Shown: positions 1-51,582 of the stretch, in pieces
How the letters are laid out: each line of letters opens with the position of its first letter
Position numbering within the stretch: the first letter of the stretch is position 1
Assembly: GCA_963716025.1 (NCBI GenBank)
Contig: CAVQSY010000023.1
Span: 7,876 to 71,875, forward strand
Length of the DNA stretch: 64,000 bases
Source: an uncultured Chloroflexia bacterium
GTDB taxonomy: Bacteria; Chloroflexota; Limnocylindria; Limnocylindrales; CSP1-4
Direction of reading: 5' to 3'
The notes under the pieces: model-generated
What the model was told of the DNA's origin: nothing
Database searches by the model: none
What the model saw: only the letters and a program-made list of their open reading frames with translations
Made by a program: the position numbers and the translations under genes

Positions 1-183
1 GTTGGCCTCGCGCCTGCACCGGGTGCTTTTGGGAGACCGATGACCGTGATGGTACCCGCGGCAGAAAACAGCGAAATTGCCAGCCGATTGGCGGTCACAA
101 TATCCTGGGGCAATTCTTGTCAGCATGCCACGGGCTAGCCGCTAGAACGCAAGATTCCCTAGTGCTTTGTCACAATTGAAAAT

Positions 184-264
184 CAGGGTTGTTGCTATTA
201 GCCGTTTTGGCACAGCCACGGTTGCTCCGAGGAACCGTGGCAAGCACAAAACGGCTAATCCCTG
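184..264. repeat. Imperfect 81-bp hairpin/palindrome upstream of the MoxR gene
   Basis: Arms ATTAGCCGTTTTG..GCCACGGTT (197-223) and AACCGTGGC..CAAAACGGCTAAT (233-259) pair around a 9-nt loop. CAGGG (184-188) and CCCTG (260-264) extend the stem across a bulge. The motif AAACGGCTAAT recurs at 7767-7777. Confidence 0.6.
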
Positions 265-303
265 CTTTTGAGTTTGACAAAACGCTCGTGATGTAGAAAA
301 AGA

Positions 304-1262: not shown

Positions 1263-1270
1263 TTTCGGTA

Positions 1271-1435
1271 GCAGAGCTCGCGCAGCGTTTGGGTTGGTTT
1301 GTTGTTGCGGAACTCGCGTAGAGTTTCGGCTCTGGTTTGTTGTAGAGTTTCGGCTCTGAATCGAAAGTCTGCGCGACTTCCGCTACGATAATGCGCCTGG
1401 CCGAAAGTCTGCCGCAACTTCCGCTACGATAATGC
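1271..1435. repeat. Two adjacent short tandem-repeat arrays in the MoxR-DUF58 spacer
   Basis: A ~37-bp unit (GCrGArCTCGCGyAGnGTTTnGGnTnGGTTTGTTGT) is present about 2.4 times at 1271-1358. A ~34-bp unit (CGAAAGTCTGCnnnnACTTCCGCTACGATAATGC) is present twice, at 1362-1394 and 1402-1435. Confidence 0.7.
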
Positions 1436-1475
1436 AACGGGACGAGGTCTTTAATGCCCAGCACGACTGCCACTC

Positions 1476-2381
1476 GTGTTTACAGTACGCCTCGATGATC
1501 TGATCCGCTTCCGGAGCTCGGCACGTGGATTTTCGCTGCTTCCTCGGCAACCGATCAACAGTTTGCTCAGCGGCCAACATGTTTCTCGTCTACGTGGCCG
1601 TGGATTAATGTTCGAGGAACTTCGCGGCTACCGCCCTGGCGACGATATTCGCCAGATGGATTGGAAGGCGACGGTCCGCCATGCGAAACCGCAGGTTCGC
1701 GTCTATTCGGAAGAGCGAGAGCGACCGATATTGTTGGTCGTAGATCAACGGTCAACGATGTTTTTCGGTAGCCATCGTATGACCAAGGCGGTCGCGGCAG
1801 TCGAGGTCGCTGCTCTGGGAGCTTGGCGGGTCTGGACGCAGGTGATCGCGTGGGCAGCGATCTTATTCGACGATGAGGAAACCATGGAGATTCGTCCCTG
1901 CCGAAGTCGCGATAGCGTACTTCGGATCTGCACGAAATCGTGCGCATGAATAATCAATTGTCTGCCGAAAAGACTTTTGCCCATTCTGACAATCGCTTGA
2001 ACGACGCATTGCGGCGTGCCGTCCAGGTGGCCAACCACGATTACCTAGTCGTATTGATCACCGACTACCATGGCGACGATGCAGAGACTCGAGCTCTGGC
2101 CACTCGGCTCGCCGTACACAATGATGTGCTAGCTGTACTCGTCTACGATCCGCTGGGAATTCGACTGCCACAGGCGGGCGGACTCATGGCGACCGACGGT
2201 CACGCGCAATTGTCGATTCCAACGGGCGAGAGATTTGGGACACTGTTCGAGTCTGGAGTTTCAAAAACGCTGTGATCAATTGCGTGACAGGTGCGCACGA
2301 TCCGCATTCCGAATCTTACCAATTTGCACGCATGAGTCGGTGTTGGACCAAGTTCGTTCGGCATTGGGTGGCCAGCCATGA
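1476..2381 (+). pseudogene. DUF58 (MoxR-associated, VWA-like) protein, frameshifted
   Basis: LRGRGLMFEELRGYRPGDDIRQMDWKAT is the typical DUF58 signature. GDRVG and AILFDDEE sit in different frames near 1840. The 1940 ORF continues the protein. The tail ...ICTHESVLDQVRSALGGQP reaches a TGA that overlaps the next ATG (ATGA at 2378-2381). Confidence 0.8.
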
Positions 2382-2858
2382 ATGATGACCTAGCCAGCTT
2401 GGACAATTTGCGAGACATCGTCGAACCGCCTCCAGTTTCGTGGTGGCCCGCCTGCCCGGGCTGGTGGATGTTGCTCGCGATACTCGCCAGCGTAGCCTCG
2501 GTCATCATCTGGCGGCGCTGGCAAACATGGCGAGCCAATGCCTATCGGCGTGCCGCCCTGGCCGAACTCCGCTCGGCAGCCAACGCGCGTGCAATTGCGG
2601 AGATTTTGAAACGTGCGGCGCTGGTCGCCAACCCTCGCACGGAAATAGCTTCGAAAACGGGGCCAGCCTGGCTAAGTTGGTTAGAGAGCGAGGGAGGCCA
2701 ACCCCTGCCGCGTCACGTGGCGCTGATGATGACCGATGGAGTCTTCGGATGAATTTGCCCCAGCCAACATAGCTGATTTGACTAGCTTCGCCTCCGCTTG
2801 GATCAAACATCATCCCGATCGCCGTAAATCGGAAAAGCCCGAGGTGGTCGAGTGTTGA
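2378..2858 (+). CDS. Small single-TM protein of Bat operons (DUF4381-like), one frame change near 2748
   Basis: It has a TM helix (WWPACPGWWMLLAILASVASVIIWRRW) and sits in the conserved position between DUF58 and BatA. After the frame change the tail ...ADLTSFASAWIKHHPDRR ends at TGA 2856-2858, overlapping the TTG start of the next gene. Confidence 0.6.
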
Positions 2859-3891
2859 CTTTTGGCAATTCTTGGATGTTATTTCTGTCGCCATTGCCGC
2901 TGCTAGTCTGGTGGCTGTTGCCACCGCGAAGCGAAACGAATGTGGCCGTTCGCATTCCATTTTTCGACCGCGCAAGGCAGGCAAGCATTGCCAGCCCGCC
3001 AACGATCGAGCAACAGGGTTAAGAATCCCACTCTGGCTGCTCGATGGTTTGGTTGCTGATCGTGTTCGCACTGGCTCCGTCCCCAGTGGTTGGAAGAACC
3101 CATAGAAAAGTTGATTCCAACGCGCTGACCTGCTATTGGTCGTTGATCTGTCAGGTTCGATGGAACAGGAGGACTTTACCAACGCGCAAGGAGGTTCCGT
3201 TAGCCGTTTGGACGCTGTGAAAGAGGTTGTTGGCGATTTCCTGACGCGTCGCCAAGGAGATCGAGTTGGGCTGGTGGTGTTTGGCAATTCTCCGTTTTTA
3301 CAGGTTCCGTTTACGACGGACCTGGAGCTTTGTCGTCAATTGTTAGACCAAACCGCGGTCCGTATGGCCGGGCCCAAGACGGCGCTGGGCGATGCAATCG
3401 GTTTGGGAATCCATCTGTTCAACGACAGTGATGCCCCTACCAAAACACTGATTGCACTGACCGATGGAAATGACACTGCCAGTGCCGTTCCGCCGGTCGA
3501 AGCGGCACGTGTTGCCAGCGATCGTGGGATCACTATTCACACGGTGGCAATCGGGAATCCAGAGACGACCGGCGAGGAAAAATTGGACGAATCAACGTTG
3601 CGGTCGGTAGCCGAAGCGACCGGTGGACAATTCTTTTTGGCACTCGACCGACAGGAGCTGCAAGGAATTTATCAGCAGTTGGACGAGATTGAAACGCGTG
3701 ATGTGAAGACGGTCAGCCATCGACCGCGACGCGACTTGTATTATTGGCCACTCGCCGCAGCGCTATTGATTTCATTGGCTGCTCATAGTTGGCAGTGGTG
3801 GCGCATGCGGGGTCGAGTGCCAGTCCGCCGGAAGCAGACGCGATTGAAGGTCAATCCCAGAACCTTCGAGCTGGAGACGATCGAGTCATGA
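2855..3891 (+). pseudogene. batA: VWA-domain membrane protein, BatA-like, frameshifted in the N-terminal third
   Basis: It carries the MIDAS motif VVDLSGSM, then GDRVGLVVFG and LTDGNDTAS, and a C-terminal TM (YYWPLAAALLISLAA). The N-terminal TM segments (SWMLFLSPLPLLVWWLL and VWLLIVFALA) are spread over other frames. Confidence 0.75.
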
Positions 3892-3911
3892 ACGGAGACG
3901 ATCGAGTCATG
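3873..3911. repeat. 21-bp tandem duplication spanning the batA stop / batB start
   Basis: GGAGACGATCGAGTCATG occurs at 3873-3890 and again at 3894-3911, separated by AAC. The first copy holds the ATGA stop/start overlap (3888-3891). The second copy creates another in-frame ATG at 3909. Confidence 0.8.
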
Positions 3912-4840
3912 TACATTGTCGAGCAATTTCACTTCATTCGTCCGGCATGGTTGCTGATGATCCCCGTCGTCGTCTGGCTGTGGTGGCTCGGGAGACGCTG
4001 GCGCGATCCGACTCGGCGGCTGGCGGGTGCAATGGATCGCGAGTTGTTGGCGGCGCTCACAGTTGGCCAAACGTCAGCCAACCATTGGTTGTCGCTATCG
4101 CTGCTGGCCGCTTGGTTGTTAGCCTCGGTCTCGCTGGCTGGGCCAACATGGCATCTTGAGCCATCACCGTTTGCCGATGACCCAATCCCGTTGATGTTAT
4201 TGCTCCGCGCCGATGCTTCCATGGACCAAGATGATCTGTCACCCAGCCGCATAGAACGGGCGCGACTGAAAGTGGCGGATATCGCCGAGCTCCGCAAGGG
4301 ACAGCCGCTGGGACTGATCGCCTATGCAGGTTCGGCGCACCTCGGTGCTTCCTCCAACCCGTGAAACGTCGCTAGTTGCGACGATGGCATCGGAGATTAG
4401 CTCAGCCATTATGCCCAAGCTGGGGGACAAAGTTGTGGAGTGCTTCAACTCGCCCACAGAACGCTCGCCTCAACCGGCGGCTCGGTAATCGTAATTGCGG
4501 ACTCTATCGAGCAAGCGAACATTGGCGAACTAGAAAAATTTGGGCGTACAAGTCAGCTCGACGTCCAGTTCCTGACGGTGGCCCCGGCCAATACACACGA
4601 AGCGGAAAGTGTTGCGACAGCGGCAACGGCAATTCGCGGTCGCGTCAACATGCTTACTCCCGACGACGACGATGTTCGAGCACTCGTCCACCGCGCCGCC
4701 AACGCCCCTCGCTCTGTCGTCTCAGCCGAAAACGGCACACTCTGGGCCGAAGCCGGCTGGTGGCTCTTAGCTCCGCTGTCAGTGTTGTCACTGATCGGCT
4801 TTCGCCGCACTCGAACCAATGTAGAAAGCTCGCCCGGTGA
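3888..4840 (+). pseudogene. batB: VWA-like membrane protein, BatB-like, frameshifted
   Basis: It has an N-terminal TM (PAWLLMIPVVVWLWW), a VWA-like core (PLMLLLRADASMDQDDLSPSRIERARLKVADIAEL, GGSVIVIADSIE) and a C-terminal TM (GWWLLAPLSVLSLIGF). There are at least 3 frame changes. The end is placed at TGA 4838-4840, which overlaps a GTG. Confidence 0.6.
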
Positions 4841-5472
4841 ACTGTTCGACGATAACCAAGGCGCAAGCAGTGCGTCCGTTGCCTATTCGTCCCTTCTGGC
4901 CGTTGGAGTCCTCACTTGGTCGAGCCTTTGGTTCTCACCTGACCAGCAGGGGCAGCGATTGATGCGATCTGGCAACTTTCAGCAAGCTGCCGAAACGTTT
5001 GCCGACCCTATGCGTCAAGGAATCGCATGGTTCCGCGCGGGGGAGTTCAAAAAGGCCGATCAAAGCTTTGCCCGACTAACGACTGCCGATGCGCTCTACA
5101 ATCGAGGTAACGCTCGTATCATGCTTGGCCAATACGAATCGGCGACAAAATCGTTTGATCAGGCACTTAAAAAACGTCCTGATTTTGCGGACGCGAAGAC
5201 GAACCGAGATATCGCCATTGCCCGCGCAAAACTAACCAAATCTGAAGGTGGTGATATGGGCGACCAGGAAGCTCGGCGCTGACGAAATTCGCTTCGATAA
5301 ACAGAAATCGGGTGGCCAGGAGACGATTGTGGAGAAACAACAGGCAGTCTCCGACGCGACGATGCAGTCGCTGTGGCTTCGCCGTGTGCAGACGAAGCCC
5401 GCCGAATTCCTCAAGGCCAAGTTTGCTTATCAGCTCGCAACCCATGACGAGCAACCGGAGGCGAGTCAATGA
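4837..5472 (+). pseudogene. batC: TPR-repeat protein, BatC-like, frameshifted
   Basis: TPR-type repeats are present (IAWFRAGEFKKADQSF, ALYNRGNARIMLGQYESATKSFDQALKKRPDFADA). The C-terminal piece (KLGADEIRFDKQ...KPAEFLKAKFAYQL) is in another frame and ends in an ATGA overlap with batD. The start is approximate. Confidence 0.6.
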
Positions 5473-6853
5473 AGCCAAACTCTGAGCGGGAAAAAAATGT
5501 CAGATACCATTTGCCAGGAACTGGCCCTACGGGTGCTTTGTACAAATGGTATCTGACGCTTTTTTCCCGACTGTTTATTCTGTTCTTCTCCTGGTCACAA
5601 CTCTGGGGGCCGGCGGTCTGTCTCGCTGAGACAGAAATTGTTCGTGCGGAATTGAAACAAAAATCTGCTTGGACCGGTGAGGGAGTTTCGATGTCAGTCA
5701 CTCTCTATTCTCCTGGACCATTTAGCGGCACTCCATCATTCGACCTACCTCACTTGCCTACCACAGCCATTGTCAAATCGGCCGGTAGTCCGCTGATCGG
5801 AAACAAAACCATCGGAGACGACTCATGGTTTACGCAGCGCCATGAATTTAGCATCTACACACAACAGACTGGAGTCATTGTCATTCCTGCATTTCGCGTT
5901 CGCTTTGCTGGGAAAAAGTCGTTCACCGGCGACGCGGAACCCATGCAGGGTGAGTCGGCTGAGCTACGTTTCTCCTCGAAACGACCGCCCGGGAACCGAA
6001 CAGCTTGGAATGGTAGTCGCGGCCGGCGAGCATGGAAGTCTCACAGACATGGAAGCCCCAGGATCCTGAAACGGTCAACGCTGGCGACGTGATCGAGCGC
6101 AATATCATGCGCCGAGCGACCGAGACATCGGCTATGATGTTTGCTCCCATACAATTGTCCCCCATTGACGATGTGCGCATTTATCCAGGCGAACCGACTG
6201 TCCAGGATCATGAGCAGCGAGGGGCAGATACCGCGCAGCGGAAGGACACTTTCAAGTACCAGTTTGCGAAACCTGGACAATATGTGGTGCCCGATTTGTC
6301 GATTGTCTGGTGGGATACAACGGCAGAGAAGTTACAGCATGAAACTCTTGCTGGGGTTGCGATCACAGTCCACAACGCTCCCTTGTCTGCAGACGCTGCC
6401 GCCGAGCTAAGCCACAGATATAGGCGGGGATTGGTTGTATTAGTTGTACTGATAACTCTCGCGGTCTGGCTTACCCGTCGCCCGCTTCGCAGAATGGTAA
6501 CTCGCTGGTGGGCGTGGAGGCGCGAGCCGAGTCACTTGGCCGCGCGGCAACTGCTCGCCGCTTGTCGAATGCACGACGCCCCAGCCGCTTGTATGGCACT
6601 GACTGCATGGAAACAGACATCGGGGTTTGCTCGTGAAGATTCCTGCCGCGCCAAACATGTGTCCACCTCACTGGTGAACGAATTCCAAAAAGAATCGGCT
6701 GAGCTACTGCGGCGAGTCTACGGCGGGACACAATCGCAGGCTGCTTGGCGCGGCGACAGGCTGGCAGTCGCGTTTCATCGCATACAATCGGCAATGGTAG
6801 CCGACGTTGAAACACATGAAGCGACACGTAGTCTTCCACGGCTCAATCCATAG
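5469..6853 (+). pseudogene. batD: BatD-like secreted/membrane protein, two frame changes near 5990-6035
   Basis: It occupies the last position in the Bat operon. The signal-peptide-like RLFILFFSWSQLWGPAVCLA is followed by a beta-rich ectodomain and a C-terminal TM (GLVVLVVLITLAVWL). The protein continues across the 5469, 5842 and 6032 ORFs. Confidence 0.6.
5488..5568. repeat. 81-bp palindromic element embedded in the first codons of batD
   Basis: 26-nt arms GGGAAAAAAATGTCAGATACCATTTG (5488-5513) and CAAATGGTATCTGACGCTTTTTTCCC (5543-5568) match at 24 of 26 positions around a 29-nt loop. The length is exactly 27 codons. Confidence 0.8.
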
Positions 6854-7119
6854 CGACTACCTGCCGTACCGTGGAGAAAAGCATTGCTCCATTGCCGATA
6901 CCGGCGCGGTGGACTTCGAAAAGACTAGCAAATAGTGAGATTTTCAAAGGTAACATAGATTCCCGCATAGTGCGAACACAGGATTGTTTATGGCGGCGAC
7001 GATTGAAAGTTGCCCAGAATCGTGCTATAGTTCGCAAAGGAAGCTGAGTCGTAATCCGCTGTGCGGAGTGTGGCTGCGTGGGCACAATTGCAAATCTTTT
7101 CTAAAAAGCGAACTACACT

Positions 7120-7713
7120 ATGTCCACTGGCCCAGACTCTTCGGAGCCTTTGAGCAGCGACATCTCCATTCTGAATGCTATTGCGGGGAACTGGTGGATC
7201 CTCTTGGTGCGTGGCTTGTTACTTATCGTGCTCGGACTCTATGCGCCGTTCAACCCCGGACTCGCGCTCCTAGCTTGGGCCTTTATGATCGGCTGCTTTC
7301 TGATCGCAGATGGGTTGCTTGCGATTGTCGCGGGCATCGCTGGCTGGACTAAATCTCGAGGCTGGACGATTCTGCGCGGAGTGCTTGCCGTGGTGGCAGG
7401 GGCGTTTGCTGCCGGCCACCCGGCCCTATTCGGAGTTATCGCGGCGATGACCGTCGTCCTGCTGATCGCCGCTTGGTCGATCATCGGCGGGGTTTTCGAG
7501 ATCATCATCGCAGTTCGCGAGCGCAAGGCGATCCAGGGGGAGGGATGGATGATCCTCGACGGCATTTTCTCCATCCTCTTCGGCGTCGTGCTTGCATCCG
7601 CACCGTTGCTGTCCGGCGGCTTACTGATTCGTGTGAGCGGTGCGTTTGCAATTTTGTTTGGTTTTGTGGTAATCTTTTCGTCATTCAAGCTTCGCAAGCT
7701 CAAGCACGTCTGA
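7120..7713 (+). CDS. hdeD: HdeD-family (DUF308) acid-resistance-type membrane protein
   Basis: This is an intact 197-aa ORF with about six TM helices and the repeated DUF308 pattern (WWILLVRGLLLIVLGL, GWTILRGVLAVVAGAFA, WMILDGIFSILFGVVL). Confidence 0.75.
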   Translation: MSTGPDSSEPLSSDISILNAIAGNWWILLVRGLLLIVLGLYAPFNPGLALLAWAFMIGCFLIADGLLAIVAGIAGWTKSRGWTILRGVLAVVAGAFAAGHPALFGVIAAMTVVLLIAAWSIIGGVFEIIIAVRERKAIQGEGWMILDGIFSILFGVVLASAPLLSGGLLIRVSGAFAILFGFVVIFSSFKLRKLKHV

Positions 7714-7803
7714 TTAAGTGACCGCGCATAAGTTTTCAGCATTAAGAACAACCGTAGCAAACGCCGAAACGGCTAATGATGCGTAAAAATTTGTGCATGG
7801 AGT

Positions 7804-7976
7804 CTTAATTGGACAGCGCCACTTTGCGTGCAATGGTAACCCGAAGCGTAAGCGAGGAAAAGAGTTACGCAAAAAGCCTCGCTAACGCTTCGGGTTACCA
7901 TTGAAATCGCCGCATCCTGCTTTATGCAAACAACTTATGAATACTATTACGTAAAAAGTGGCGCTGTCCAATTAAG
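7804..7976. repeat. 173-bp composite nested palindrome (MITE-like or bidirectional terminator-like)
   Basis: The outer 22-nt arms are perfect: CTTAATTGGACAGCGCCACTTT (7804-7825) and its reverse complement (7955-7976). The inner 27-nt arms (7831-7857 and 7877-7903) match at 26 of 27 positions around a 19-nt loop. TTACGyAAAAAG recurs at 7865 and 7947. Confidence 0.8.
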
Positions 7977-7995
7977 TGATGAGGTTTAAAGAAGC

Positions 7996-8614
7996 ATGAG
8001 TACTGCCGAACGTCCCAACTTTGTCACAGAAGACGATTACTTAGCATCCGAGGAATTGGCGATAACAAAAAGCGAGTACATCGACGGATGGATCCGCGCG
8101 ATGGCGGGAGCGACCAATCGACACAATCGTGTGAAAATGAATTGCCTGTTGAACCTCGGGGTTGGATTGAAGAACAAGTCTTGTCAGCCATGGGATTCGG
8201 ACACCAAGGTTCGTATACGTGGTTTCGGTTATACTCGCTTTTACTATCCTGATGCACAGGTCGTCTGCGAGAGCAATGCACCGACAGACGTGTTCCAAGA
8301 CAAACCAGTGGTCATCATCGAAGTCTTGTCACCATCGACGCGGGCCTACGATTTGGATGAAAAGCTGAACGCCTATCTTAGGATTGCGTCGTTGCAATGT
8401 TATGTGATTCTTGAAAAGCACACACCGCTGGCAATTGTAATGCGACTGTACGCCGGCTGGGTTTCTGCGTGAGACCTACGAAGGCACTGATGCGACGATC
8501 GATCTGCCATCCATAGGTTGTGAGCTGCTACTTCGTGAGGTCTATAAGGGGGTTGAATTCACACCAACCTGCGTTCAAGAATCTGAACAAGAGTACGAGC
8601 GAACCACAGACTGA
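7996..8614 (+). CDS. Uma2-family (DUF820) PD-(D/E)XK endonuclease, one frame change near 8455
   Basis: EYIDG, YYPDAQVVCE and VVIIEVLSPSTRAYDLDEKLNAYLRI match the Uma2 catalytic pattern. After the shift the tail is ...RETYEGTDATIDLPSIGCELLLREVYKGV, ending at TGA 8612-8614. Confidence 0.75.
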
Positions 8615-43450: not shown

Positions 43451-44140
43451 GTGGACGTGAGTCGCCTCGTCGTTGGCCTGCTGATCGCGGCACTCCTGGC
43501 CATGGTCGCCCCGTCGACGGCGTCGGCCGAGTGCACCGCGTATGACCGACCTGTCGACCGGACGTTGAACGTCGGGTTTGCGTTCATCGCGACCGTTGTC
43601 GACGCATCCGGCGAGACGGATCCCCCGCATGCGGGCTCGGCGCCGTTCGACTGGCACGTGGCGCTCCGGATCGAGCGCGTCCTCGCCGGGGAGGTGCCGG
43701 AGGAGCTGGTGTTCAATGGCTGGAGCGTCGGCTGTCACAGCGTTCGGGGGAACAGGCTCTCGACCGGCGACCGGGTCGTGATCGCAACCGAGCGCTTCCG
43801 GCGGGGCCATCTCCCGGTCGAGCCGTTCGGTGGCGATGTCGTCGTCTGGCGCTGGGACGGCGATCGCTGGCAGTACGCACGCCGCGTCGTGGGCGTGGAG
43901 GAACACCCGCTCGATCAGTTCCCGCTGACGGCAATCCGCAGCGCCAGGACGACCGCCGACATCGTTGCGATCGTGCGCCAGGCGATGCCCGATACCGCCA
44001 CCGCCCCAGCCACGGCCCGTGTAGCGGAGGGTCCAGGACCTGTGCCCTGGATCGTGCTGCTGACGGCGGGCCTGCTCGGCCTCGTCGCAGGCGCCAGGCT
44101 CACCGCTAGGGGATCGAGCCCAGTGCCGCCTTGGCGATGA
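43451..44140 (+). CDS. Hypothetical secreted protein with a C-terminal TM anchor
   Basis: There is a GTG start and a signal peptide (LVVGLLIAALLAMVAPSTASA). The C-terminal hydrophobic segment is PWIVLLTAGLLGLVAGA. No known motif was found. Confidence 0.5.
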   Translation: MDVSRLVVGLLIAALLAMVAPSTASAECTAYDRPVDRTLNVGFAFIATVVDASGETDPPHAGSAPFDWHVALRIERVLAGEVPEELVFNGWSVGCHSVRGNRLSTGDRVVIATERFRRGHLPVEPFGGDVVVWRWDGDRWQYARRVVGVEEHPLDQFPLTAIRSARTTADIVAIVRQAMPDTATAPATARVAEGPGPVPWIVLLTAGLLGLVAGARLTARGSSPVPPWR

Positions 44141-45068
44141 CCGCGCTCAGGAAGGCCACCGACACGCTGGCGAGGGTGCCCAGCAGGTAGTACTCGGCGA
44201 AGCCGCGGTCATCGAGCTGCTTGAACCGGGCGATGGTCTTGGCCGCGATGACGAAGCCGACCGCCGCCTCCGCGTTGACCAGCACGAACGCCACGATGAG
44301 CAGCCGCTCGAGGGCGCCGATGGTCGCGCCGATGCGGGCGGGTGCCCCGGTGGGAACGGAGGGCGTGGCCCCCAGCGCAACCGACGGCTCGGTCGCGACG
44401 TCGGCCGTCCTCCCGGCGGCTGTCGTCCCGGGGGCAGACTCGGCCCGGTGCCCCGCTTCCGGCAGCTCGCGCGGCGAGACGAGCGCGAGGACGAAGTAGA
44501 AGGCGGCGCGGGTGTTGATGATGAACAGCGAGACGAGCACGACGCCGGTCAGGATGGCGGCGTGCACGACGGCCCGGTCCCAGCTCCGGAGCGCGGTATT
44601 CACGACGTCGATGAACCCCTGCTGGATCGCGACGCCCTCCAGGATCACGAGCCAGCCGACGAGGGCGATCGTGATGTGGAGCGCCTGGTCGGCGAGGTAC
44701 AGCATCCCCGGCCACGGGGTCCAGGCGCTGCCGAGCCCCGACTCCGGCGCCTGGCTGGTCCGTCCCAGCCGCGCCCGTGCGGCTGCGAGGGCCCTCCGCT
44801 CCGCGCGGCGCGTCGTCTGGACCTTCCAGCGGTCGACCAGGACGTGTGTCGTGACCACGACCGCGATGTAGAGCACCGCCGGCATCCCGTAGGCGAACAG
44901 GAACGGGACCAGGCACAGCCCGACGTGGAATCCATGGACCCCCAGCGCGGCCCACCCGCCACGGCCCCCGGTTCCCTTGTTGATCGCGATCCAGTCGTTC
45001 TGGAGCACGAAGTCCGCGACGAGATGGGCCAGGATCAGCCAGGCCAGGACCAGGATCGTGTCGGTCAC
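44106..45068 (-). CDS. DUF3307-domain membrane protein (SatE-like)
   Basis: The GTG start overlaps the satD-like stop (GTGA). It has the DUF3307 signature (AHLVADFVLQNDWIA) and multiple TM helices. Confidence 0.7.
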   Translation of the reverse strand: MTDTILVLAWLILAHLVADFVLQNDWIAINKGTGGRGGWAALGVHGFHVGLCLVPFLFAYGMPAVLYIAVVVTTHVLVDRWKVQTTRRAERRALAAARARLGRTSQAPESGLGSAWTPWPGMLYLADQALHITIALVGWLVILEGVAIQQGFIDVVNTALRSWDRAVVHAAILTGVVLVSLFIINTRAAFYFVLALVSPRELPEAGHRAESAPGTTAAGRTADVATEPSVALGATPSVPTGAPARIGATIGALERLLIVAFVLVNAEAAVGFVIAAKTIARFKQLDDRGFAEYYLLGTLASVSVAFLSAVIAKAALGSIP

Positions 45069-45754
45069 GCCGTGCTCCCCGGTGGACGCGAATCGGGGGC
45101 GGGATCGTCCCCGGTGGCCGCAGCGGCACGGGTCACGCCGCCGTGGAAGATGGATGCGAGGGCCGTGCTGAGCCTCGCCAGGTGGCGGACCCGGGCCCGG
45201 TCCGCGATGACCGAGACGGTCGCCCGGCTCACCCGCAGGCGCTCGGCAGCCTCCGCCTGCCGGAGGTTCTCCACCAGGAGCAGGCGCGCGATCTCGCGCT
45301 GGCGGGCGGTGAGCTCGGCCAGCAGCGCCGGGAGCAGCGGAGCGAGGTCGGCGAGCAGCGCGTCCGCTTCCAGGTCGCCCGTGACGGCCGCCATCCCCTC
45401 GCGCCGTGTCTTGGCGCGATCGAGCAGCTCCCGCGCCGCGTGGAAGGCAGGCCCGTTTCGCTCCGTCGCGGGCCCGGTGCCCCGGTCGACATCGCCGGCG
45501 ACCACCGCCCACCGCAGCTCCCGTGCGTCGGGGTGCACCGCGGCCCGCACCACACCACGAAACGGGTCCGCACCGGGGGCGAGCAGCAGCTGGATCTCGT
45601 CGCCCTGGGTGAACCCCGCCGTGGCGAGACGCTCCCCGTCATACGCCGCGTCCAGGTCGTCGCGCAGCGTCCGCAGGAACGCGGCGGCGCCGGCGTCGCG
45701 GCGTGAGTCCACGACGTCGCCGAAGAGCACGATGGCCGGCACCTGGGCTGTCAC
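45065..45754 (-). CDS. SatD-family protein (N-terminal nucleotide-cyclase-like fold plus C-terminal sigma-70 region-4-like HTH)
   Basis: The N-terminus is IVLFGDVVDSR...GFTQGDEIQLL. The C-terminus is LTARQREIARLLLVENLRQAEAAERLRVSRATVS. It is paired with a DUF3307 gene, as in sat operons. Confidence 0.65.
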   Translation of the reverse strand: MTAQVPAIVLFGDVVDSRRDAGAAAFLRTLRDDLDAAYDGERLATAGFTQGDEIQLLLAPGADPFRGVVRAAVHPDARELRWAVVAGDVDRGTGPATERNGPAFHAARELLDRAKTRREGMAAVTGDLEADALLADLAPLLPALLAELTARQREIARLLLVENLRQAEAAERLRVSRATVSVIADRARVRHLARLSTALASIFHGGVTRAAAATGDDPAPDSRPPGSTA

Positions 45755-45838: not shown

Positions 45839-47374
45839 TCAATCTGCCGACACACCGGCCGGCATCGCCCCGAACAGCCGCCCGACCGCCTCCGCGAGCG
45901 CGGCCCGGTGGGCCTCCGTCGCGAAGTCGAGCAGCGGGTCCGCCGGCAGCGCATGCTCGGTCAGCGAACCGTCACGCCGCACGTAGGCGACCGGGTACAG
46001 GCCACCCTGACCGTCCGACTCGACCGTCATCGCGAGGAGGTCCTCGGTCATCCCGTCAAGCGCGTGTGTCAGCGGCAGGATCCCGGCGTCGCGCAGGGTC
46101 CCGTCCCGCTCGGCGGTGACCACCCGGGCGAGGTACGCCTTCTGGTGCCACAGCTCCGGGGCGGAGGTCGCCTCTCGCAGCAGGTAATCGATGACCTCGT
46201 CGCGGGCCACGATGGGGCACTCGCGAGCCCTGCCGAACACCGTCTCCGCGAGATGCCGGGCCAGGACGAGGCTGTTGTAGCGATGCCCGTGGACGGCGCC
46301 CGAGTTGGCGGGCACACCGTGCTTGCGAAGACCGGGTGCCGCCTGGCTGATCGTGCCCGCAAAGTAGATCCCGTGGACGGTGGTGCTCTCCCAGAACGGC
46401 GTCACCACCGGCAGCTTCGCCGCCCCGAACGTGGCGACCCCGAGATCCGGCAGGTCGCGCAGCGGACACGTGAAGCCCGTGGCCGCGATGACCTCGTCGG
46501 CCTCCACGCACAGGTCCTCTCCGGTGTCGGTCCGGTGGAGGTCCACCCGGATGGCTTGGCCCACCTGGGTGAGCCCCGTGATGGACGCGTTGAGGATCCG
46601 CACTCCGAGCCCCAGGAAGCCGTCCTCGAACGGCTGGACGTAGCGCGCGCGGACACCGGCGAGCGACTTGGTCTGGATGCTGGTCTTGGCCGGCGATGGC
46701 GAGCAGACGGTGATCGACGACGCCCATTGGGCGAGTCCCGTCGCCAGCTCGAAGCCGCTGTTCTGCTTGCCGATGATGAAGATCCGCTTGCCGGCATAGG
46801 TCGCGGCATCGCGGGTGTCGGCGTAGTGGCGGGCGAGCTCGATGCCCGGGGTGACCGGCAGCGACGGCTGGGCGATCCCCACCGCGAGCACCAGCGCGCG
46901 ACAGCGGTATTCGCCGTCGCTGGTCTGGAGCACGAACGAGGGGCCGTCGGGACCCTCCTCGCGGCGTGTCGACTCCCAGCGGGTTTGGAACCGGACCGCG
47001 ATCCCGGCTCGTTCCGCGAACGCCTCGAGGTTCTGCTGCATCGCCGGACGCGACGGAAAGTAGGAGGTGTCGTCGAGAAACTCCGCCTGGAGGCTGCGAA
47101 GCTCCGGCTCGTCCGCGAGGAGGCTGTTCCAGTCGTAGCGCTGGTACTCGCGCGTGGTCCGCTCGGCCGGGGCGTAGGGCTTGGACCAGGACAGCAGCCG
47201 CTGGAAGAACGGCCATCGCCGGAACATCCCGCCCGGGCCCACGTCGGCGGAGATCACGGCGTGCTCGATGCCTTCGCGGCGGAGCGCGTAGGACACCTGG
47301 AGCCCACCCGGACCCGACCCGATCACGACCACCGGGTAGTCACCCGGTGGGAAGGGACGTTCCGCCGCCTCCAC
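45839..47374 (-). CDS. FAD/NAD(P)-binding oxidoreductase (flavin-monooxygenase / TrxR-like fold) with a C-terminal extension
   Basis: The GTG start lies 2 nt after the stop of the upstream cNMP-binding gene. Motifs include YPVVVIGSGPGGLQVSYAL, a second dinucleotide site (KRIFIIGKQNSGFELA) and ATGF. Confidence 0.8.
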   Translation of the reverse strand: MEAAERPFPPGDYPVVVIGSGPGGLQVSYALRREGIEHAVISADVGPGGMFRRWPFFQRLLSWSKPYAPAERTTREYQRYDWNSLLADEPELRSLQAEFLDDTSYFPSRPAMQQNLEAFAERAGIAVRFQTRWESTRREEGPDGPSFVLQTSDGEYRCRALVLAVGIAQPSLPVTPGIELARHYADTRDAATYAGKRIFIIGKQNSGFELATGLAQWASSITVCSPSPAKTSIQTKSLAGVRARYVQPFEDGFLGLGVRILNASITGLTQVGQAIRVDLHRTDTGEDLCVEADEVIAATGFTCPLRDLPDLGVATFGAAKLPVVTPFWESTTVHGIYFAGTISQAAPGLRKHGVPANSGAVHGHRYNSLVLARHLAETVFGRARECPIVARDEVIDYLLREATSAPELWHQKAYLARVVTAERDGTLRDAGILPLTHALDGMTEDLLAMTVESDGQGGLYPVAYVRRDGSLTEHALPADPLLDFATEAHRAALAEAVGRLFGAMPAGVSAD

Positions 47375-47376
47375 CG

Positions 47377-47799
47377 TCAGCTCCGCCAGCGGTTGGCGTT
47401 GCGGAGGCGACGGGCAAGCGCCTGGAGCATCCGGAACATCACCGGTGGGTGGGCCAGGAGGAATGGCTGGACCGCCGTCGGCCCCAGGACGATGCAGCGG
47501 AGGGTGGAGGTGGCGACGATGTCGGCCGTGGGCGGCTCTCCCAGCAGGATCGAGACCTCGCCGAAGAAGTCGCCGCGGTGGAGCGTGCCGCGCGTCGTCC
47601 CATCGATCCGGACGTCCGCCGTGCCGTCGAGGATGATGTAGAACCCGGAACCCGTGAGGCCCTGGCGGAGGACCCGCTCGCCCTCCGCCATCGCGGTCTC
47701 CTCGAACAGGCCCGCGACGCTGAGCAGCTGTGGGGACCCGAGGTCCGAGAACAGGGCGAACCCGGCCAGGGTGTCGGCGAGCTCCTCGCGCGTAGCCAC
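47377..47799 (-). CDS. Stand-alone cyclic-nucleotide-binding (CNB) domain protein
   Basis: The GTG start follows GAGGAGG. It has a CNB fold (LFSDL, GERVLRQGLTGSGFYIILDG, FFGEVSILLGEPPTADIVA). The phosphate-binding Arg is replaced (PPTA). Confidence 0.8.
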   Translation of the reverse strand: MATREELADTLAGFALFSDLGSPQLLSVAGLFEETAMAEGERVLRQGLTGSGFYIILDGTADVRIDGTTRGTLHRGDFFGEVSILLGEPPTADIVATSTLRCIVLGPTAVQPFLLAHPPVMFRMLQALARRLRNANRWRS

Positions 47800-47966
47800 G
47801 GGACGGCCCCTCCTCGTTCTCCCCCACTCAGTACGACCCGGGACGGCCGCAGGGGCGCATGGTCCCACGAATCACGGTGCCGTGCCCGGGTCCTTCCGCC
47901 ACGTGCCCGGCTCTTTCGGCCACGTGGCTCCAACCGGGTTGACGCCGACGGCCGGCCCGGCGCACG

Positions 47967-48422
47967 ATGCGATCCGTGCCCGAGGAGGAGCCCGTGTCCC
48001 TGTCCGCGTCCCACCGCGTAACGCTCATGCGTGCCTGCCCGCTGTTCACCGGGCTGGACGAGTCCGGGCTGGCCGCCGTCTCCGCCGCGGCCGTCGAGGT
48101 GGCATTTCCCCCCGACCGGGTGATCGCGCGCGAGGGCGAGATCGGCACCGGGCTGTTCATCGTCGGTGAGGGCCGGGTCCGGGTCATGCGTGACGGCCTG
48201 GCGATCGCCCACCTTGGACCGGGCGAGTTCTTCGGTGAGCTCTCGGTCCTCGACGGCGGTCCGCGCAACGCCGCGGTGATCGCTGACGTGCCCACCACGT
48301 GTCTTGCGCTCGCGACCTGGGATGCCGAGCGTGTCCTCCGCGAGCAGCCGGGCGTCGCCCTGGCGATCCTGCGGGTCCTCGCGGGACGCCTTCGCGCAGC
48401 CACCTCCGACCACCGGACCTAG
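47967..48422 (+). CDS. Stand-alone cyclic-nucleotide-binding (CNB) domain protein
   Basis: CPLFTGL, REGEIGTGLFIVGEG and FFGELSVLDGGPRNAAVIA are present, with a canonical Arg in the phosphate-binding cassette. Confidence 0.85.
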   Translation: MRSVPEEEPVSLSASHRVTLMRACPLFTGLDESGLAAVSAAAVEVAFPPDRVIAREGEIGTGLFIVGEGRVRVMRDGLAIAHLGPGEFFGELSVLDGGPRNAAVIADVPTTCLALATWDAERVLREQPGVALAILRVLAGRLRAATSDHRT

Positions 48423-48450
48423 AGGTCGCGTCCCCCCAGAGGCCTGAGCC

Positions 48451-51150
48451 GTGTCCCCCGAGCTCCCCAGCGGTACCGTCGCATTCCTGTTCACGGATAT
48501 CGAAGGGTCCACCAGGCTCGTCAGCCGGATCGGCGACGCTGCCTACGGAGACCTGTTGGCCATCGAGCGCCGACTCGTCGTCGATGCCGCGGTGGGCGCG
48601 GGCGGGGTCTACTTCGGCTCCGAAGGGGATGCCCACTTCATTGCCTTCACGTCTGCGGCATCCGCGATCCGTGGAGCCGTGGCCGCCCAGCGCGCGCTCG
48701 CGGCCCAGCCCTGGCCGGACGACCAGGCCGTCACGGTGCGGATGGGGGTCCACGCGGGAGAGGCCCGGGTGGTCGACGGCAATTACGTCGGCTACGAGGT
48801 GCACCACGCCGCGCGCGTCGCTTCCGCCGCTCACGGCGGCCAGGTGCTGGTCTCCGGGGCGGCCAAGGGGCTGGTGGGTGATCCCGGTGGCGGGATCACG
48901 CTTCGCGACCTCGGGCAGCACTCGCTCAAGGATGTGGCGGCTGCAGAGCACCTGTTCCAGGCCGACGCCGACGGGCTGCGTGCGGCCTTTCCACCGCTGC
49001 GGACGGTCGGGCAGGTCGCCGGCAACCTGCCGGCCCAGCTCACCTCGTTCGTGGGCCGTGCCGAGCTTGCCGATGCGCGGGCCCTCCTGGACCAGGTCAG
49101 GCTCCTGACGCTCACCGGACCGGGTGGCACCGGCAAGACCCGGCTGTCACTGGAGCTCGCGTCGGGATGCGCGGACCGGTTTCCGGATGGCACCTGGTTC
49201 GTGCCGCTGGCAGCGATCCGGGACCCGGAGCTCGTCCCGTCCTCGATCGCGAGCACCCTGGGCCTGCTGTCCCCGTCCCAGCCACCGCTGGACCGTGTCC
49301 GCGACCACCTCCGGGGCCGGCAGAGCCTCCTCGTCCTGGACAACCTGGAGCAGGTGATCGAGGTGGGACCCACGGTCGCCGATCTGCTGCGACAGGCCCC
49401 GGGGCTGACCGTCATCGCGTCGAGCCGGGCCCCGCTCCGGGTCGCCGGCGAGCAGGAGTTCCCGGTCCCGCCCCTCGCCCTGCCGCCCCTCGGCACCCGG
49501 GACCCTGTGGCCGTCGCGGGGTCCGAGGCCGGTCGCCTGTTCGAGCAGCGTGCGGCGGCGGTCCGCCCCGGCTTCTCGATCATGGCCGACAACGCCGGGG
49601 AGATCGCCGAGATCGTCCGCCGCCTCGACGGCCTGCCGCTGGCCATCGAGCTCGCCGCCGCCAGGATCCGCCTGCTGTCACCGCAGGCGATGGCCCGTCG
49701 CCTCGATGGCCGGCTGTCGCTGCTGTCGTCGGGGGGTCGGGATCTGCCCGAGCGGCAGCGGACGCTGCGCGGGGCCATCGACTGGAGCCACGACCTCCTG
49801 GAGCCCGGGGAGCGGCGCCTGTTCGCCCGGCTGGCCGCCTTCGCCGGCGGCGGGTCCATCGATCTCGTCGAGCAGGTGTGCGTGCTCCCCGGGGATGCGG
49901 ACGACGACCCGGAGACCGACGCGATCGGCCTGCTCGAACGGCTCGCCGAGCAGAGCCTGGTGCGCGTCGAGGAGGACGCCCACGGCGACGTCCGGTTTGC
50001 CATGCTCGAGACGCTGCGCGAGTACGCGCACGAGCGCCTCGAGGCCCGCGGGGAGACGCGCGTCGTCGCCGACAGGCACGCGGCCGCCATGCGGGAGCTG
50101 CTCGATGCGGCGGTCTCGGACATGCGCGACCGGGGCGCGGTGCTCGACCGACTGGACGACGAGCACGACAACATCCGGGCCGCCATCGACCACGCGATCG
50201 CGGTCGGTGACACCGTGACGGCCTCCGCGCTCGCATTCGGCTCCTGGCGCTTCTGGCAGATGCGGGGGCATATCGTCGAAGGGCGACGGCGCCTGGACCA
50301 GGTGCTTGCGATGCCCGGCTGGACGATGGAGCCATCGCGTGCTCGTCTCAAGGCCCTCGAGGCAGCCGGGGGCCTGGCCTACTGGGCCGGCGACATGACC
50401 GGGTCCGGCCCCCACTACGCCGATGCCGTCGTGGAGGCCCGCCGGCTGGGCGATGATGCCGAGGTCGCGAACGCGGTCTACAACCACTGGTTCACGCGCC
50501 GGGTGACGGAGAACGTCGCCGATTGGGGGAAGCTGCTCGCGGATGATGACCGAGCCCTCCTCGACGAGGCCCTCGAGATCTGGACCAGGATCGATGACCA
50601 GCACGGTGTGGCGAAGGCGCTGTGGGGCCTGGGCGAGCACTACGCCTACCGGGAGGAGTACCCGGCCGCGGAGGATGCGACCACCCGGGCACTGGCGATC
50701 TTCGAGCGAGGTGGTGACCGCTTCTGGATCGCCTGGACTCGATTCACCCGGGCGTTCGCGCGCGGGTCCGCCCAGGACGTGCGCGGCGCTGCCGAGGACT
50801 TCGCCGTCATCCTTCGCGAGTTCCGGGACAGTCGGGACGTGTCCGGCCTGTGCCTGTCGATGTCGGCCATGTCGGGGCTCCTGCTCGCGGCCGGCCGCGC
50901 CGAAGATGGGTTCGCCGTCGCCGCCGCAGCCGCCCGTGCGATCGCGGAGACCGGCCTTCACCTGGCAACCCTGTGGCCGACCGCGGCCCTCACCGTCCCG
51001 GATCTTGAGCAGGCGACCGGCGCGCTCGCGCAGGCCGCGGCGCGCGGCCGCGCATGGTCACGCGAGCAGGGTCTGGACGAGACGATCCGCATGGCGGATG
51101 ACCTCGCCGCAATCCGGGCGGACGGCTCGGCGGCGACGACGCCAGCGTAG
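48451..51150 (+). CDS. Class III adenylate/guanylate cyclase fused to a STAND (NB-ARC/AAA) NTPase and TPR-like repeats
   Basis: The cyclase motifs are VAFLFTDIEGSTRL, GDAHFIAF, RMGVHAGEA and GYEVHHAARVASAAHGGQVLVS. Then come Walker A (LTGPGGTGKTRL) and Walker B (LLVLDNLEQV), followed by a helical repeat C-terminus. No HTH was seen. Confidence 0.85.
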   Translation: MSPELPSGTVAFLFTDIEGSTRLVSRIGDAAYGDLLAIERRLVVDAAVGAGGVYFGSEGDAHFIAFTSAASAIRGAVAAQRALAAQPWPDDQAVTVRMGVHAGEARVVDGNYVGYEVHHAARVASAAHGGQVLVSGAAKGLVGDPGGGITLRDLGQHSLKDVAAAEHLFQADADGLRAAFPPLRTVGQVAGNLPAQLTSFVGRAELADARALLDQVRLLTLTGPGGTGKTRLSLELASGCADRFPDGTWFVPLAAIRDPELVPSSIASTLGLLSPSQPPLDRVRDHLRGRQSLLVLDNLEQVIEVGPTVADLLRQAPGLTVIASSRAPLRVAGEQEFPVPPLALPPLGTRDPVAVAGSEAGRLFEQRAAAVRPGFSIMADNAGEIAEIVRRLDGLPLAIELAAARIRLLSPQAMARRLDGRLSLLSSGGRDLPERQRTLRGAIDWSHDLLEPGERRLFARLAAFAGGGSIDLVEQVCVLPGDADDDPETDAIGLLERLAEQSLVRVEEDAHGDVRFAMLETLREYAHERLEARGETRVVADRHAAAMRELLDAAVSDMRDRGAVLDRLDDEHDNIRAAIDHAIAVGDTVTASALAFGSWRFWQMRGHIVEGRRRLDQVLAMPGWTMEPSRARLKALEAAGGLAYWAGDMTGSGPHYADAVVEARRLGDDAEVANAVYNHWFTRRVTENVADWGKLLADDDRALLDEALEIWTRIDDQHGVAKALWGLGEHYAYREEYPAAEDATTRALAIFERGGDRFWIAWTRFTRAFARGSAQDVRGAAEDFAVILREFRDSRDVSGLCLSMSAMSGLLLAAGRAEDGFAVAAAAARAIAETGLHLATLWPTAALTVPDLEQATGALAQAAARGRAWSREQGLDETIRMADDLAAIRADGSAATTPA

Positions 51151-51159
51151 GATGGGCCC

Positions 51160-51582
51160 GTGAGCGGCGCCGCCTCCCCGATCGACCTCTCCCTCGACGC
51201 TTCCGTCTCGCCCAACCTTGCCTGGGCGGCCATCACGGATCCCGCGCGAATCGCCGAGTGGTTGACGGAGGCCACCGCGCTGGGTGCCGTGGGCTCCCCC
51301 TACCGGCTGGACTTCGGTGACGGCAGCGTCGTGGGTGGCATTGTCCTGGGCGTTGACCCGGGCCGATCCTTCTCCCACTCGTGGCGCTGGCAGGGCGCGG
51401 ACGACACCGAGACGACCGTGGTGACCTGGACCGTGTCCGCCCTGCCCGACGGCGGATCGCGGATCCGGATTGTCCACGACGGCTGGGACGAGGCTGGACT
51501 GGACGGTTCGGCGCGCGACGATCACGAGGGCTACTGGAAGGGCTACCTCGAGGACCTGCGCGACATCCTCGCGGACGGGTGA
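51160..51582 (+). CDS. SRPBCC (AHSA1/START-like) domain protein
   Basis: This 140-aa protein carries AWAAITDPARIAEWL, RLDFGDG and VTWTVS...RIVHDGW, typical of the Aha1-like SRPBCC family. Confidence 0.7.
   Translation: MSGAASPIDLSLDASVSPNLAWAAITDPARIAEWLTEATALGAVGSPYRLDFGDGSVVGGIVLGVDPGRSFSHSWRWQGADDTETTVVTWTVSALPDGGSRIRIVHDGWDEAGLDGSARDDHEGYWKGYLEDLRDILADG

Follow-up and report, generated by a model that had tools for sequence, protein, structure and literature searches.

Two divergent operons encoding a class III cyclase-STAND-TPR protein, two single-domain cyclic-nucleotide-binding-domain proteins and a flavoprotein: a candidate second-messenger-to-redox-enzyme cassette in Limnocylindria-type Chloroflexota

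Here we describe a four-gene cassette located at positions 45,839 to 51,150 of a 64,000-nucleotide stretch of DNA (the window) from an uncultured Chloroflexia bacterium (assembly GCA_963716025.1, contig CAVQSY010000023.1). The cassette is arranged as two divergent operons. On the plus strand, the gene for a single-domain cyclic-nucleotide-binding (CNB) protein, CNB1 (47967-48422), lies 28 nt ahead of the gene for an 899-amino-acid (aa) protein, identical to gene call P0121, that carries a class III cyclase homology domain, a STAND module and tetratricopeptide (TPR) repeats (48451-51150). On the minus strand, a second single-domain CNB protein of 140 aa, CNB2 (47377-47799), is followed by a 511-aa FAD/NAD(P)-binding oxidoreductase, here called FLAVO (45839-47374; identical to gene call P0001). 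The stop codon of CNB2 stands 2 nt ahead of the GTG start of FLAVO, the two genes being in different frames. The four open reading frames, their coordinates and their Walker and CNB cassette motifs are present as the original prediction for this locus had described them. The closest relatives of the window proteins come from metagenome-assembled genomes (MAGs) labelled Candidatus Limnocylindrales, Limnocylindria or Chloroflexota, and the window, at about 71% G+C from about 10 kb onward, belongs to a high-GC Limnocylindria-type Chloroflexota. Limnocylindria are an abundant uncultured lineage of soil and freshwater. The G+C fraction of the cassette itself (0.71-0.73) is the same as that of the surrounding genome.

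The 899-aa protein is confidently modelled (AlphaFold2, mean predicted local distance difference test score, pLDDT, 87.5) and has more than 8000 homologues, many of them annotated as 'predicted ATPase/class 3 adenylate cyclase'; the cyclase-STAND-TPR architecture is in itself common and already annotated. Its N-terminal domain (aa 1 to ~175, 48451-48975) finds its best matches, in sequence and in structure, among the Ma1120 and Rv1900c/LipJ cyclases. By phmmer it is related to Mycobacterium avium Ma1120 with E=2e-18 and 33-34% identity, and to Rv1900c/LipJ with E=2e-10, and in Foldseek it superimposes on Ma1120 with a target-normalised TM-score (TMt) of 0.91-0.93 and a root-mean-square deviation of 2.1-2.5 A. 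The homology to class III cyclases is thus clear despite a Pfam score that stays under threshold.

In order to read the active site, 113 full-length family members were aligned with Ma1120, whose residue roles have been described together with its activity with Ala at the position of the transition-state Asn (PMC4215837). The two metal-binding Asp residues (in the motifs FTDIEG and SEGDA) are kept in 112-113 of the 113 sequences, the transition-state Arg (equivalent to Ma1120 Arg168) is invariant, and the C-terminal Lys column holds Lys in 111 members and Arg in two. The window protein retains both metal Asp residues, the Arg and the Lys, in agreement with the cyclase assignment originally made. 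The columns that specify adenine in Ma1120 are far more variable: at the position of Lys101 the family has Gly (90 members), Arg (13), Ser (9) or Asn (1), and at that of Asp157 it has mostly Asp (84), with Glu and Ser besides, and Asn in the window protein and one other member (2/113). Across paralogues the first position is occupied by G, S, R or N and the second by D, E, G, S or N. The specificity-residue check that had been proposed for this cyclase therefore returns a non-canonical Gly/Asn pair, unlike Lys-Asp for ATP or Glu-Cys/Ser and the like for GTP, against a family consensus of Gly/Asp, and the column of the transition-state Asn holds His in all 113 sequences. Since Ma1120 is active with Ala at this last position, loss of the Asn appears to be tolerated. 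From these alignments we take the window domain to be a class III cyclase that is unconventional but probably competent in catalysis, and whose product is uncertain; cAMP is most likely, although the Gly/Asn pair leaves this open. Ma1120 and the window domain thus have in common the absence of the canonical Asn (Ala and His, respectively), whereas Ma1120 carries the canonical Lys-Asp pair and the window domain carries Gly-Asn and is fused to a STAND-TPR portion.

The cyclase domain is followed by a STAND module with nucleotide-binding, helical and winged-helix parts (aa ~200-520, 49048-50010), which is recognised by Pfam as AAA_22 in the window protein and as NB-ARC, nSTAND1 or AAA_16 in homologues. 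Its Walker A (GPGGTGKT) and Walker B (LLVLDN) motifs are invariant in 40 homologues of 46-86% identity. The chain ends in a TPR superhelix, presumably a sensor arm (aa ~536-886, 50056-51108), with a Pfam TPR_12 match, partial NCBIfam matches to the TPR regions of HaaT and AfsR, and an all-helical model. Foldseek relates the whole post-cyclase part to the STAND-TPR structure 6mfv and to the NB-ARC modules of Apaf-1, CED-4 and plant NRC1 (TMt 0.69). The order N-terminal effector, nucleotide-binding oligomerisation domain and C-terminal TPR, with Walker A and B motifs, is shared with MalT, AfsR, PH0952/6mfv and Apaf-1/NB-ARC proteins, but the effector is here a nucleotidyl cyclase instead of a DNA-binding, CARD or nuclease domain.

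The well-known mycobacterial cyclase-ATPase-LuxR proteins (Rv0386, Rv1358 and Rv2488c) are the evident point of comparison. In proteins of the Rv0386 type, as in the window protein, a Ma1120/Rv1900c-type cyclase at the N-terminus precedes a STAND/AAA ATPase and helical repeats in one chain, and both have non-canonical specificity pairs: reportedly Gln/Asn in Rv0386, and Gly/Asn in the window protein, with the His that is invariant in its family. In contrast to them, the window protein has no C-terminal LuxR/GerE helix-turn-helix (HTH) and its gene forms part of a conserved cassette that also includes CNB genes. In this regard, neither Pfam nor NCBIfam detects a LuxR/GerE HTH or other DNA-binding domain in the 899-aa protein, and the model ends in TPR helices, so the absence of a LuxR HTH noted from the first inspection of the locus holds. 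Without an HTH, the output of the protein must be the nucleotide itself.

Both CNB proteins score above the gathering score of Pfam cNMP_binding (PF00027; 27.5 bits), CNB1 with 66 bits and CNB2 with 49 bits. They are complete genes under purifying selection and not fragments of larger ones, which had been named as a way in which the prediction could fail. Their nearest solved relatives are the regulatory subunits of protein kinase A (PKA) and the CNB domains of protein kinase G (PKG), to which 2pqq, a stand-alone CNB protein of 149 aa, is added in the case of CNB1. The phosphate-binding cassette of CNB1, FFGELSVLDGGPRNAAVIA, is canonical; in the segment FFGELSVLDGGPRNA, which aligns with the PKG cassette, the Gly-Glu and the Arg are kept in 73 orthologues. 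The cassette of CNB2, FFGEVSILLGEPPTADIVA, has Pro at the position of the phosphate-binding Arg. In phmmer alignments with PKG and PKA regulatory-subunit domains, its second Pro falls on the Arg of EPRTAS or EPRSAT, and an invariant acidic residue, here Asp, stands two positions past the Arg site in place of Ser or Thr (PTAD versus RTAS/RSAT of PKG). The Arg-less Pro cassette is found in all recovered CNB2 orthologues, including those from Acidimicrobiia-, Actinomycetota- and Dormibacterota-labelled genomes; it is thus an old trait maintained by selection, not a product of decay. The difference between the two cassettes that had been remarked on at the outset is thus real and old.

Compared with the PKA regulatory subunits, the PKG CNB domains, 2pqq and CbpA, a stand-alone CNB protein of P. 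aeruginosa that is mentioned in a review (PMC11139211), CNB1 and CNB2 are single-domain proteins, CNB2 lacks the Arg, and the presumed partner is a flavoenzyme and not a kinase. A CNB domain with no fused output must act in trans. We found in the literature no bacterial example of a stand-alone CNB protein paired with a flavoenzyme.

The region between the two operons (47800-47993) contains promoter-like elements, which were read from conservation across 71 orthologous intergenic regions. Toward CNB1 and the cyclase gene, TTGACG (47939-47944) is separated by 18 nt from CACGAT (47963-47968), and the element recurs among orthologues as TTGACG-N18-CA(C/G)(G/C)AT. Toward CNB2 and FLAVO, a TG-extended -10-like element, TGGGACCAT, is recurrent on the minus strand (plus-strand atggtc, 47859-47864). 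A generic consensus scan for promoters and terminators gave nothing meaningful and picked up neither of these elements. The same comparison bears on the start of CNB1, which had been given as a protein of 151 aa from ATG 47967. That open reading frame exists, but the true start is probably GTG 47994, which yields 142 aa: a ribosome-binding site, GAGGAGGAG, precedes this GTG at 47981-47989, orthologues start at the equivalent position, and the TTGACG-N18-CACGAT element overlaps the ATG. CNB2 orthologues start at the same 'MATREE' position. The intergenic region of the window also holds two CACGTG palindromes 22 nt apart (GCCACGTGCCCGG ... GGCCACGTGGCT, within 47895-47930). Their reading as a paired operator was ruled out, since CACGTG occurs in 2 of the 71 orthologous regions and is therefore lineage-specific and no conserved site.

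FLAVO matches Pfam Pyr_redox_3 with 115 bits. In its AlphaFold2 model (pLDDT 73), residues 1 to ~370 adopt the two-Rossmann fold of low-Mr thioredoxin reductases (TrxR) and YpdA, and residues ~380-505 form a confidently modelled, family-specific alpha/beta C-terminal domain of ~130 aa. The nearest folds in Foldseek are YpdA/Bdr (7a7b, TMt 0.70), the TrxR of T. acidophilum (3cty, 0.69) and the TrxR-like ferredoxin-NADP+ reductases 3ab1 and 2zbw. FLAVO lies far under every NCBIfam equivalog cutoff, reaching 40 bits for TrxB (TIGR01292, cutoff 343) and 57 bits for YpdA (TIGR04018, cutoff 340). Its sequence has no CxxC motif, and no cysteine is conserved across phyla. As regards YpdA/Bdr and the TrxR-like ferredoxin-NADP+ reductases, the fold match extends over the N-terminal 370 residues and CxxC is absent on both sides, but FLAVO differs from YpdA/Bdr in lacking the conserved catalytic Cys and in having the extra C-terminal domain.

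The FLAVO subfamily is marked by the motifs RYDWNSL, GKQNSGFE, WES and HRYN. It belongs to a wider family of ~520-aa flavoproteins present in Streptomyces, Nostocales, Acidobacteriota and others, with the motifs GAGPGGLQ, RWDWNSL, GKGNSAFE, TGF, WES.NV and GFRYN. One member of this wider family (P0359, 1258 aa) combines the flavoprotein with an adenylation domain of the AMP-binding type and a phosphopantetheine carrier domain, and because of this fusion some of these relatives may act on carrier-tethered substrates in natural-product pathways. Clustering of the genomic neighbours of the wider family was dominated by spurious high-GC open reading frames and gave hints only (an AMP-binding enzyme, an antiporter), from which no function was drawn.

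The CNB2-FLAVO pair had been likened to a split version of fused CNB-TrxR proteins. Such fusions exist, for example ATII-TrxR and its homologue in Cupriavidus metallidurans, one of which has been expressed (PMC6544261), and they resemble the pair in that a CNB domain is coupled with an FAD/NAD(P)H flavoprotein whose two Rossmann domains adopt the low-Mr TrxR fold. The likeness stands as an analogy, but not as descent. CNB2 and FLAVO are separate, translationally coupled genes, CNB2 lacks the cassette Arg, and FLAVO is of another subfamily, with no redox-active cysteines and with the additional ~130-aa domain. Since the fused proteins are genuine TrxB enzymes with redox cysteines, CNB2-FLAVO corresponds to them by analogy and is no split orthologue of theirs. 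A tblastn search of plasmids with FLAVO and CNB2 found no fused relatives, and five apparent CNB-flavoprotein fusions considered as Rosetta-stone evidence (P0254, P0265, P0274, P0286, P0343) were rejected as frameshift artefacts, for they are singleton clusters with long Arg-rich out-of-frame stretches. These and many other representatives of the family in the public clustered library, P0280 and P0290 among them, are frameshifted Arg-rich mistranslations from error-prone high-GC assemblies; they inflate cluster counts and produce false domain fusions.

The conservation of the cassette was followed by tblastn and hidden Markov model scans over 238 loci, reduced to 144 non-redundant loci with the FLAVO clade. 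CNB2 lies immediately upstream of FLAVO on the same strand in 135 of the 137 loci with enough sequence, and an in-frame FLAVO start is found between -13 and +18 nt from the CNB2 stop in 134/136. When only well-covered Chloroflexota-labelled loci are considered (n=86; at least 5 kb upstream and at least 4 kb downstream), 80 have a cyclase-domain gene, 80 a second CNB gene and 74 all four genes together, in line with the co-conservation on which the original prediction had staked its case. FLAVO itself is 62-91% identical across 80 species-level loci from Limnocylindria- or Chloroflexota-labelled MAGs. The cassette therefore appears near-universal in Limnocylindria and vertically inherited, and to understand it would shed light on the core physiology of the group. 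It had also been called self-contained. The four genes do co-occur widely, but both cyclases are gone from at least four Limnocylindria genomes that still keep CNB1, CNB2 and FLAVO, and two more are also without CNB1.

The plural is due to a duplication. In most Limnocylindria genomes, CNB1 is directly followed by a cyclase-STAND paralogue of lineage A, ~45% identical to the window protein, while lineage B comprises the orthologues of the window protein (52-87% identical, at least 58% in nearly all loci). Some genomes have the two in tandem, A first, and in the window and four further loci (L002, L004, L017, L023) B is left alone after the loss of A. The tandem duplication after CNB1 and the later differential loss can be followed in L009-L031 (e.g. 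L010 3445-8886 and L016 2567-7992). At the specificity positions, Gly is paired with Gly or Ser in paralogue A, whereas paralogue B combines Gly or Ser with Asp or Asn, a difference that may reflect divergence in substrate or in regulation. P0236, a cyclase-STAND protein that is a distant homologue, is encoded with neither CNB nor flavoprotein genes beside it, from which it follows that the cyclase family as a whole is not tied to the cassette.

Within Limnocylindria, the whole ~20-kb neighbourhood is syntenic, including unrelated housekeeping genes, and for this reason the decisive control is provided by 20 loci from other phyla, mainly Actinomycetota-labelled and including Acidimicrobiia and Egibacteraceae, where FLAVO is 44-57% identical to that of the window. 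None of nine genes that flank the cassette in the window (thyX, PNP, S15 peptidase, NUDIX, DAO, MFS, AHSA1, SatD-like and DUF3307) is found at any of the 20 loci. The CNB2-FLAVO pair is kept in 19 of them, and the remaining locus is truncated. A class III cyclase lies within 6 kb in about half, and its architecture differs from locus to locus: a TPR-cyclase in L165, L174 and L202; an alpha/beta-hydrolase-cyclase like LipJ (Rv1900c) in L210; a Zn-ribbon-cyclase-AAA16-TPR protein in L175; and a cyclase-NB-ARC-TPR protein that is encoded upstream of CNB2-FLAVO in L163, directly downstream of FLAVO in L198, L207, L216 and L225, and convergently downstream of FLAVO on the opposite strand in L223. 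The divergent layout of the window is repeated in L210, where the hydrolase-cyclase gene comes after a gene for a CNB protein with the Arg. A fixed CNB2-FLAVO core with an exchanged partner cyclase is what one would expect of an effector module linked to a messenger. Five of the cyclases beside CNB2-FLAVO in Actinomycetota-labelled loci have the canonical adenine-specifying Lys-Asp pair, which suggests that cAMP is the messenger tied to the module in those genomes, and ancestrally for the module.

Among control loci of the wider flavoprotein family, a cyclase or CNB gene was found nearby in 1 of 80. In that single case (L136 10-7500, from a cyanobacterial MAG), genes for a cyclase-domain protein and an MscS-CNB channel lie 2-6 kb upstream of a wider-family flavoprotein, a proximity that is probably a coincidence.

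Taken together, these findings lead us to propose, with a probability of roughly one half, that the locus is a vertically inherited housekeeping cassette, built of two divergent operons, that links a cyclic nucleotide monophosphate (cNMP) to a redox enzyme. The analyses above establish the domain identities, the conservation of catalytic and binding residues, the coupling of the genes and their co-occurrence, and all mechanistic steps that connect these are inferred. Binding of a ligand to the TPR arm and of ATP to the NB-ARC-like module would drive oligomerisation of the STAND protein, which would in turn bring the N-terminal cyclase domains together and switch on cNMP synthesis. Class III cyclases form their active sites only across a dimer interface, and mere proximity could for this reason act as the switch. 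CNB1, with its canonical cassette and its co-transcription with the cyclase gene, would be the cNMP receptor. CNB2 is expected to be made in fixed proportion to FLAVO, as the stop/start coupling of the two genes indicates, and would serve as its dedicated regulatory subunit, much as the regulatory subunits of PKA do for their kinase, sensing the messenger either non-canonically or through CNB1. At the output, the cassette would govern an NAD(P)H/FAD oxidoreductase predicted to be no disulfide reductase. A receptor and effector tuned to a diffusible messenger fit with the genomes that lack the cyclase and yet keep CNB1, CNB2 and FLAVO.

A more specific form of this proposal, to which we give about one chance in four, follows by analogy the logic of the PKA holoenzyme. 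CNB2 would be an obligate subunit that acts in trans to regulate the flavoenzyme; CNB1 may pair with it and confer responsiveness to cAMP, or the Gly/His-type cyclase may produce a non-canonical nucleotide that CNB2 reads; and a STAND-gated messenger would directly switch a redox enzyme with no transcription factor in between.

Several observations weigh against the proposal of a cNMP-to-redox cassette. The co-occurrence of the four genes must in part reflect shared ancestry, as the Limnocylindria region is syntenic throughout. Several Actinomycetota-labelled loci hold CNB2-FLAVO with neither a second CNB gene nor a cyclase within 6 kb, and the pair therefore has no strict need of such partners nearby. 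The cyclase domain of the window scores 17.5 bits against PF00211, under the gathering score of 21.9 that many close homologues pass; its specificity pair is not the canonical one; and His replaces the transition-state Asn. Finally, canonical cNMP binding by CNB2 is doubtful, given that the phosphate-anchoring Arg is absent and that an acidic residue is close by.

If CNB2 does not sense the messenger at all, CNB2-FLAVO may be the input of the system rather than its output. In such a reverse flow, CNB2-FLAVO would be a redox or metabolite sensor that feeds the TPR arm of the STAND protein, CNB2 would bind a non-nucleotide ligand or read the state of FLAVO, and CNB1 would be a downstream cNMP receptor acting on other targets. 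Its appeal comes from the CNB2 cassette, ill-suited to a cyclic phosphate with its invariant Pro for Arg and neighbouring Asp, from the structural matches that mark STAND TPR arms as sensor modules, and from the fact that it is CNB1, and not CNB2, that shares an operon with the cyclase. In addition, it is general knowledge that beta-barrels of the CRP family bind many non-nucleotide ligands, as in CooA, CprK, PrfA and NtcA. However, CNB2-FLAVO stands with no nearby cyclase in several genomes, the cyclase has been lost in others that keep CNB1, CNB2 and FLAVO, and the partner cyclases of other phyla carry unrelated sensors, such as an alpha/beta-hydrolase or a Zn-ribbon, with which a conserved docking of CNB2 is hard to reconcile. 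We consider the reverse flow unlikely, at something like one chance in five in the balance of this evidence.

Somewhat less probable still is a cyclase-like domain that is dead, or that makes a product other than a 3',5'-cNMP, and that would act mainly as a module for oligomerisation or effector docking, the CNB proteins being ligand-independent adaptors. The sub-threshold Pfam score, the Gly in place of the specificity Lys, the Asn that replaces the Asp in the window protein (2/113), the His at the transition-state position and the wide variation of the specificity positions among paralogues would all agree with it. On the other hand, a domain that does not catalyse would hardly have kept the metal Asp residues and the Arg invariant over 45-100% identity, together with a Lys in all but the two members that have Arg. 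Ma1120 retains activity although it has Ala in place of the Asn, and Rv0386 is reportedly active with its Gln/Asn pair. Furthermore, the cyclase gene shares its transcript with the gene of a canonical CNB protein that has the Arg, and the partner cyclases in Actinomycetota-labelled genomes are of the canonical Lys-Asp type.

A role in anti-phage defence or abortive infection, where an NLR-like STAND sensor would make a cyclic nucleotide and a CNB-coupled effector would unleash FLAVO as a toxic output after the fashion of Pycsar or CBASS, is very improbable. The formal layout of STAND sensor, cyclase, CNB proteins and enzyme does fit, and the CNB proteins weakly match the CNB part of PycTIR effectors. 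However, these PADLOC matches concern the generic CNB domain only, and PADLOC returned no match for the cyclase-STAND protein or FLAVO; no TIR, nuclease, pore-forming or other toxic domain is found by Pfam; the composition is that of the genome; and the cassette is near-universal in the class instead of patchy, in core-genome synteny with thyX, PNP, peptidase and NUDIX genes. The preference for a regulatory role over defence that had been voiced for this locus, and the accompanying statement that no toxic effector domain is present, are therefore borne out. That the four genes are neighbours through inherited synteny only, as the 20-kb Limnocylindria neighbourhood with its unrelated housekeeping genes might suggest, is equally remote and for CNB2-FLAVO largely refuted, because their adjacency and stop/start coupling persist where all other neighbours have changed, because cyclases recur beside them in varied orientations and architectures, and because the wider-family control stands at 1/80.

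As a whole, the cassette suggests an undescribed way of linking a second messenger with a redox enzyme in two bacterial phyla. To our knowledge, very few bacterial effectors of cAMP or cGMP have been recognised beyond CRP-type transcription factors and a few fused enzymes such as the mycobacterial CNB-acetyltransferase, and we know of no established mode of action for stand-alone CNB proteins. In the literature we found no description of a cassette in which a cyclase and a flavoprotein occur with two CNB proteins, a canonical stand-alone one and an Arg-less one, the fused ATII-TrxR being the nearest. If the reading of CNB2 as a regulatory subunit is true, it would define a new class of bacterial cNMP effector, widespread in soil Limnocylindria-type Chloroflexota and in some Actinomycetota. 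The cassette lends itself to experiment, as the activation of its dedicated cyclase is expected to follow STAND oligomerisation, a canonical and a naturally Arg-less CNB protein are offered side by side, and the activity of FLAVO can be tracked optically through NAD(P)H and FAD. Moreover, a cyclase family with an invariant His and variable specificity residues constitutes a natural experiment in the substrate selection of class III cyclases.

With regard to the surroundings of the cassette, a gene of the SRPBCC/AHSA1 family (51160-51582, plus strand; Pfam AHSA1, 55 bits) starts 9 nt past the stop of the cyclase-STAND gene and is probably co-transcribed with it. It is found at 35 of 138 Chloroflexota-labelled loci and at 0/20 of other phyla, and represents a possible accessory outside the conserved core. 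Directly downstream of FLAVO, on the minus strand (44106-45754), are genes for a SatD-family protein of 229 aa with an HTH resembling sigma-70 region 4 and then for a DUF3307 membrane protein, a pair that is kept in the closer Limnocylindria relatives only (43-54 of the 138 loci) and in none of the other-phylum loci.

The beginning of the window (1-8500) is a block of 54-57% G+C inside a genome of ~71% G+C. The idea that the low-GC first 8-10 kb is an rRNA operon was ruled out, as Rfam and ARAGORN were empty there, and these two programs found no rRNA or tRNA genes anywhere in the window. The block carries genes for a MoxR-type AAA_3 ATPase, DUF58, VWA and TPR proteins, which resemble a Bat/aerotolerance cluster, together with a DUF308 protein and a Uma2-family endonuclease. 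Several of its open reading frames begin in the middle of a domain, such as the AAA_3 match that opens at profile position 37, which points to frameshifts, to an island gained by horizontal transfer or to a chimeric assembly.

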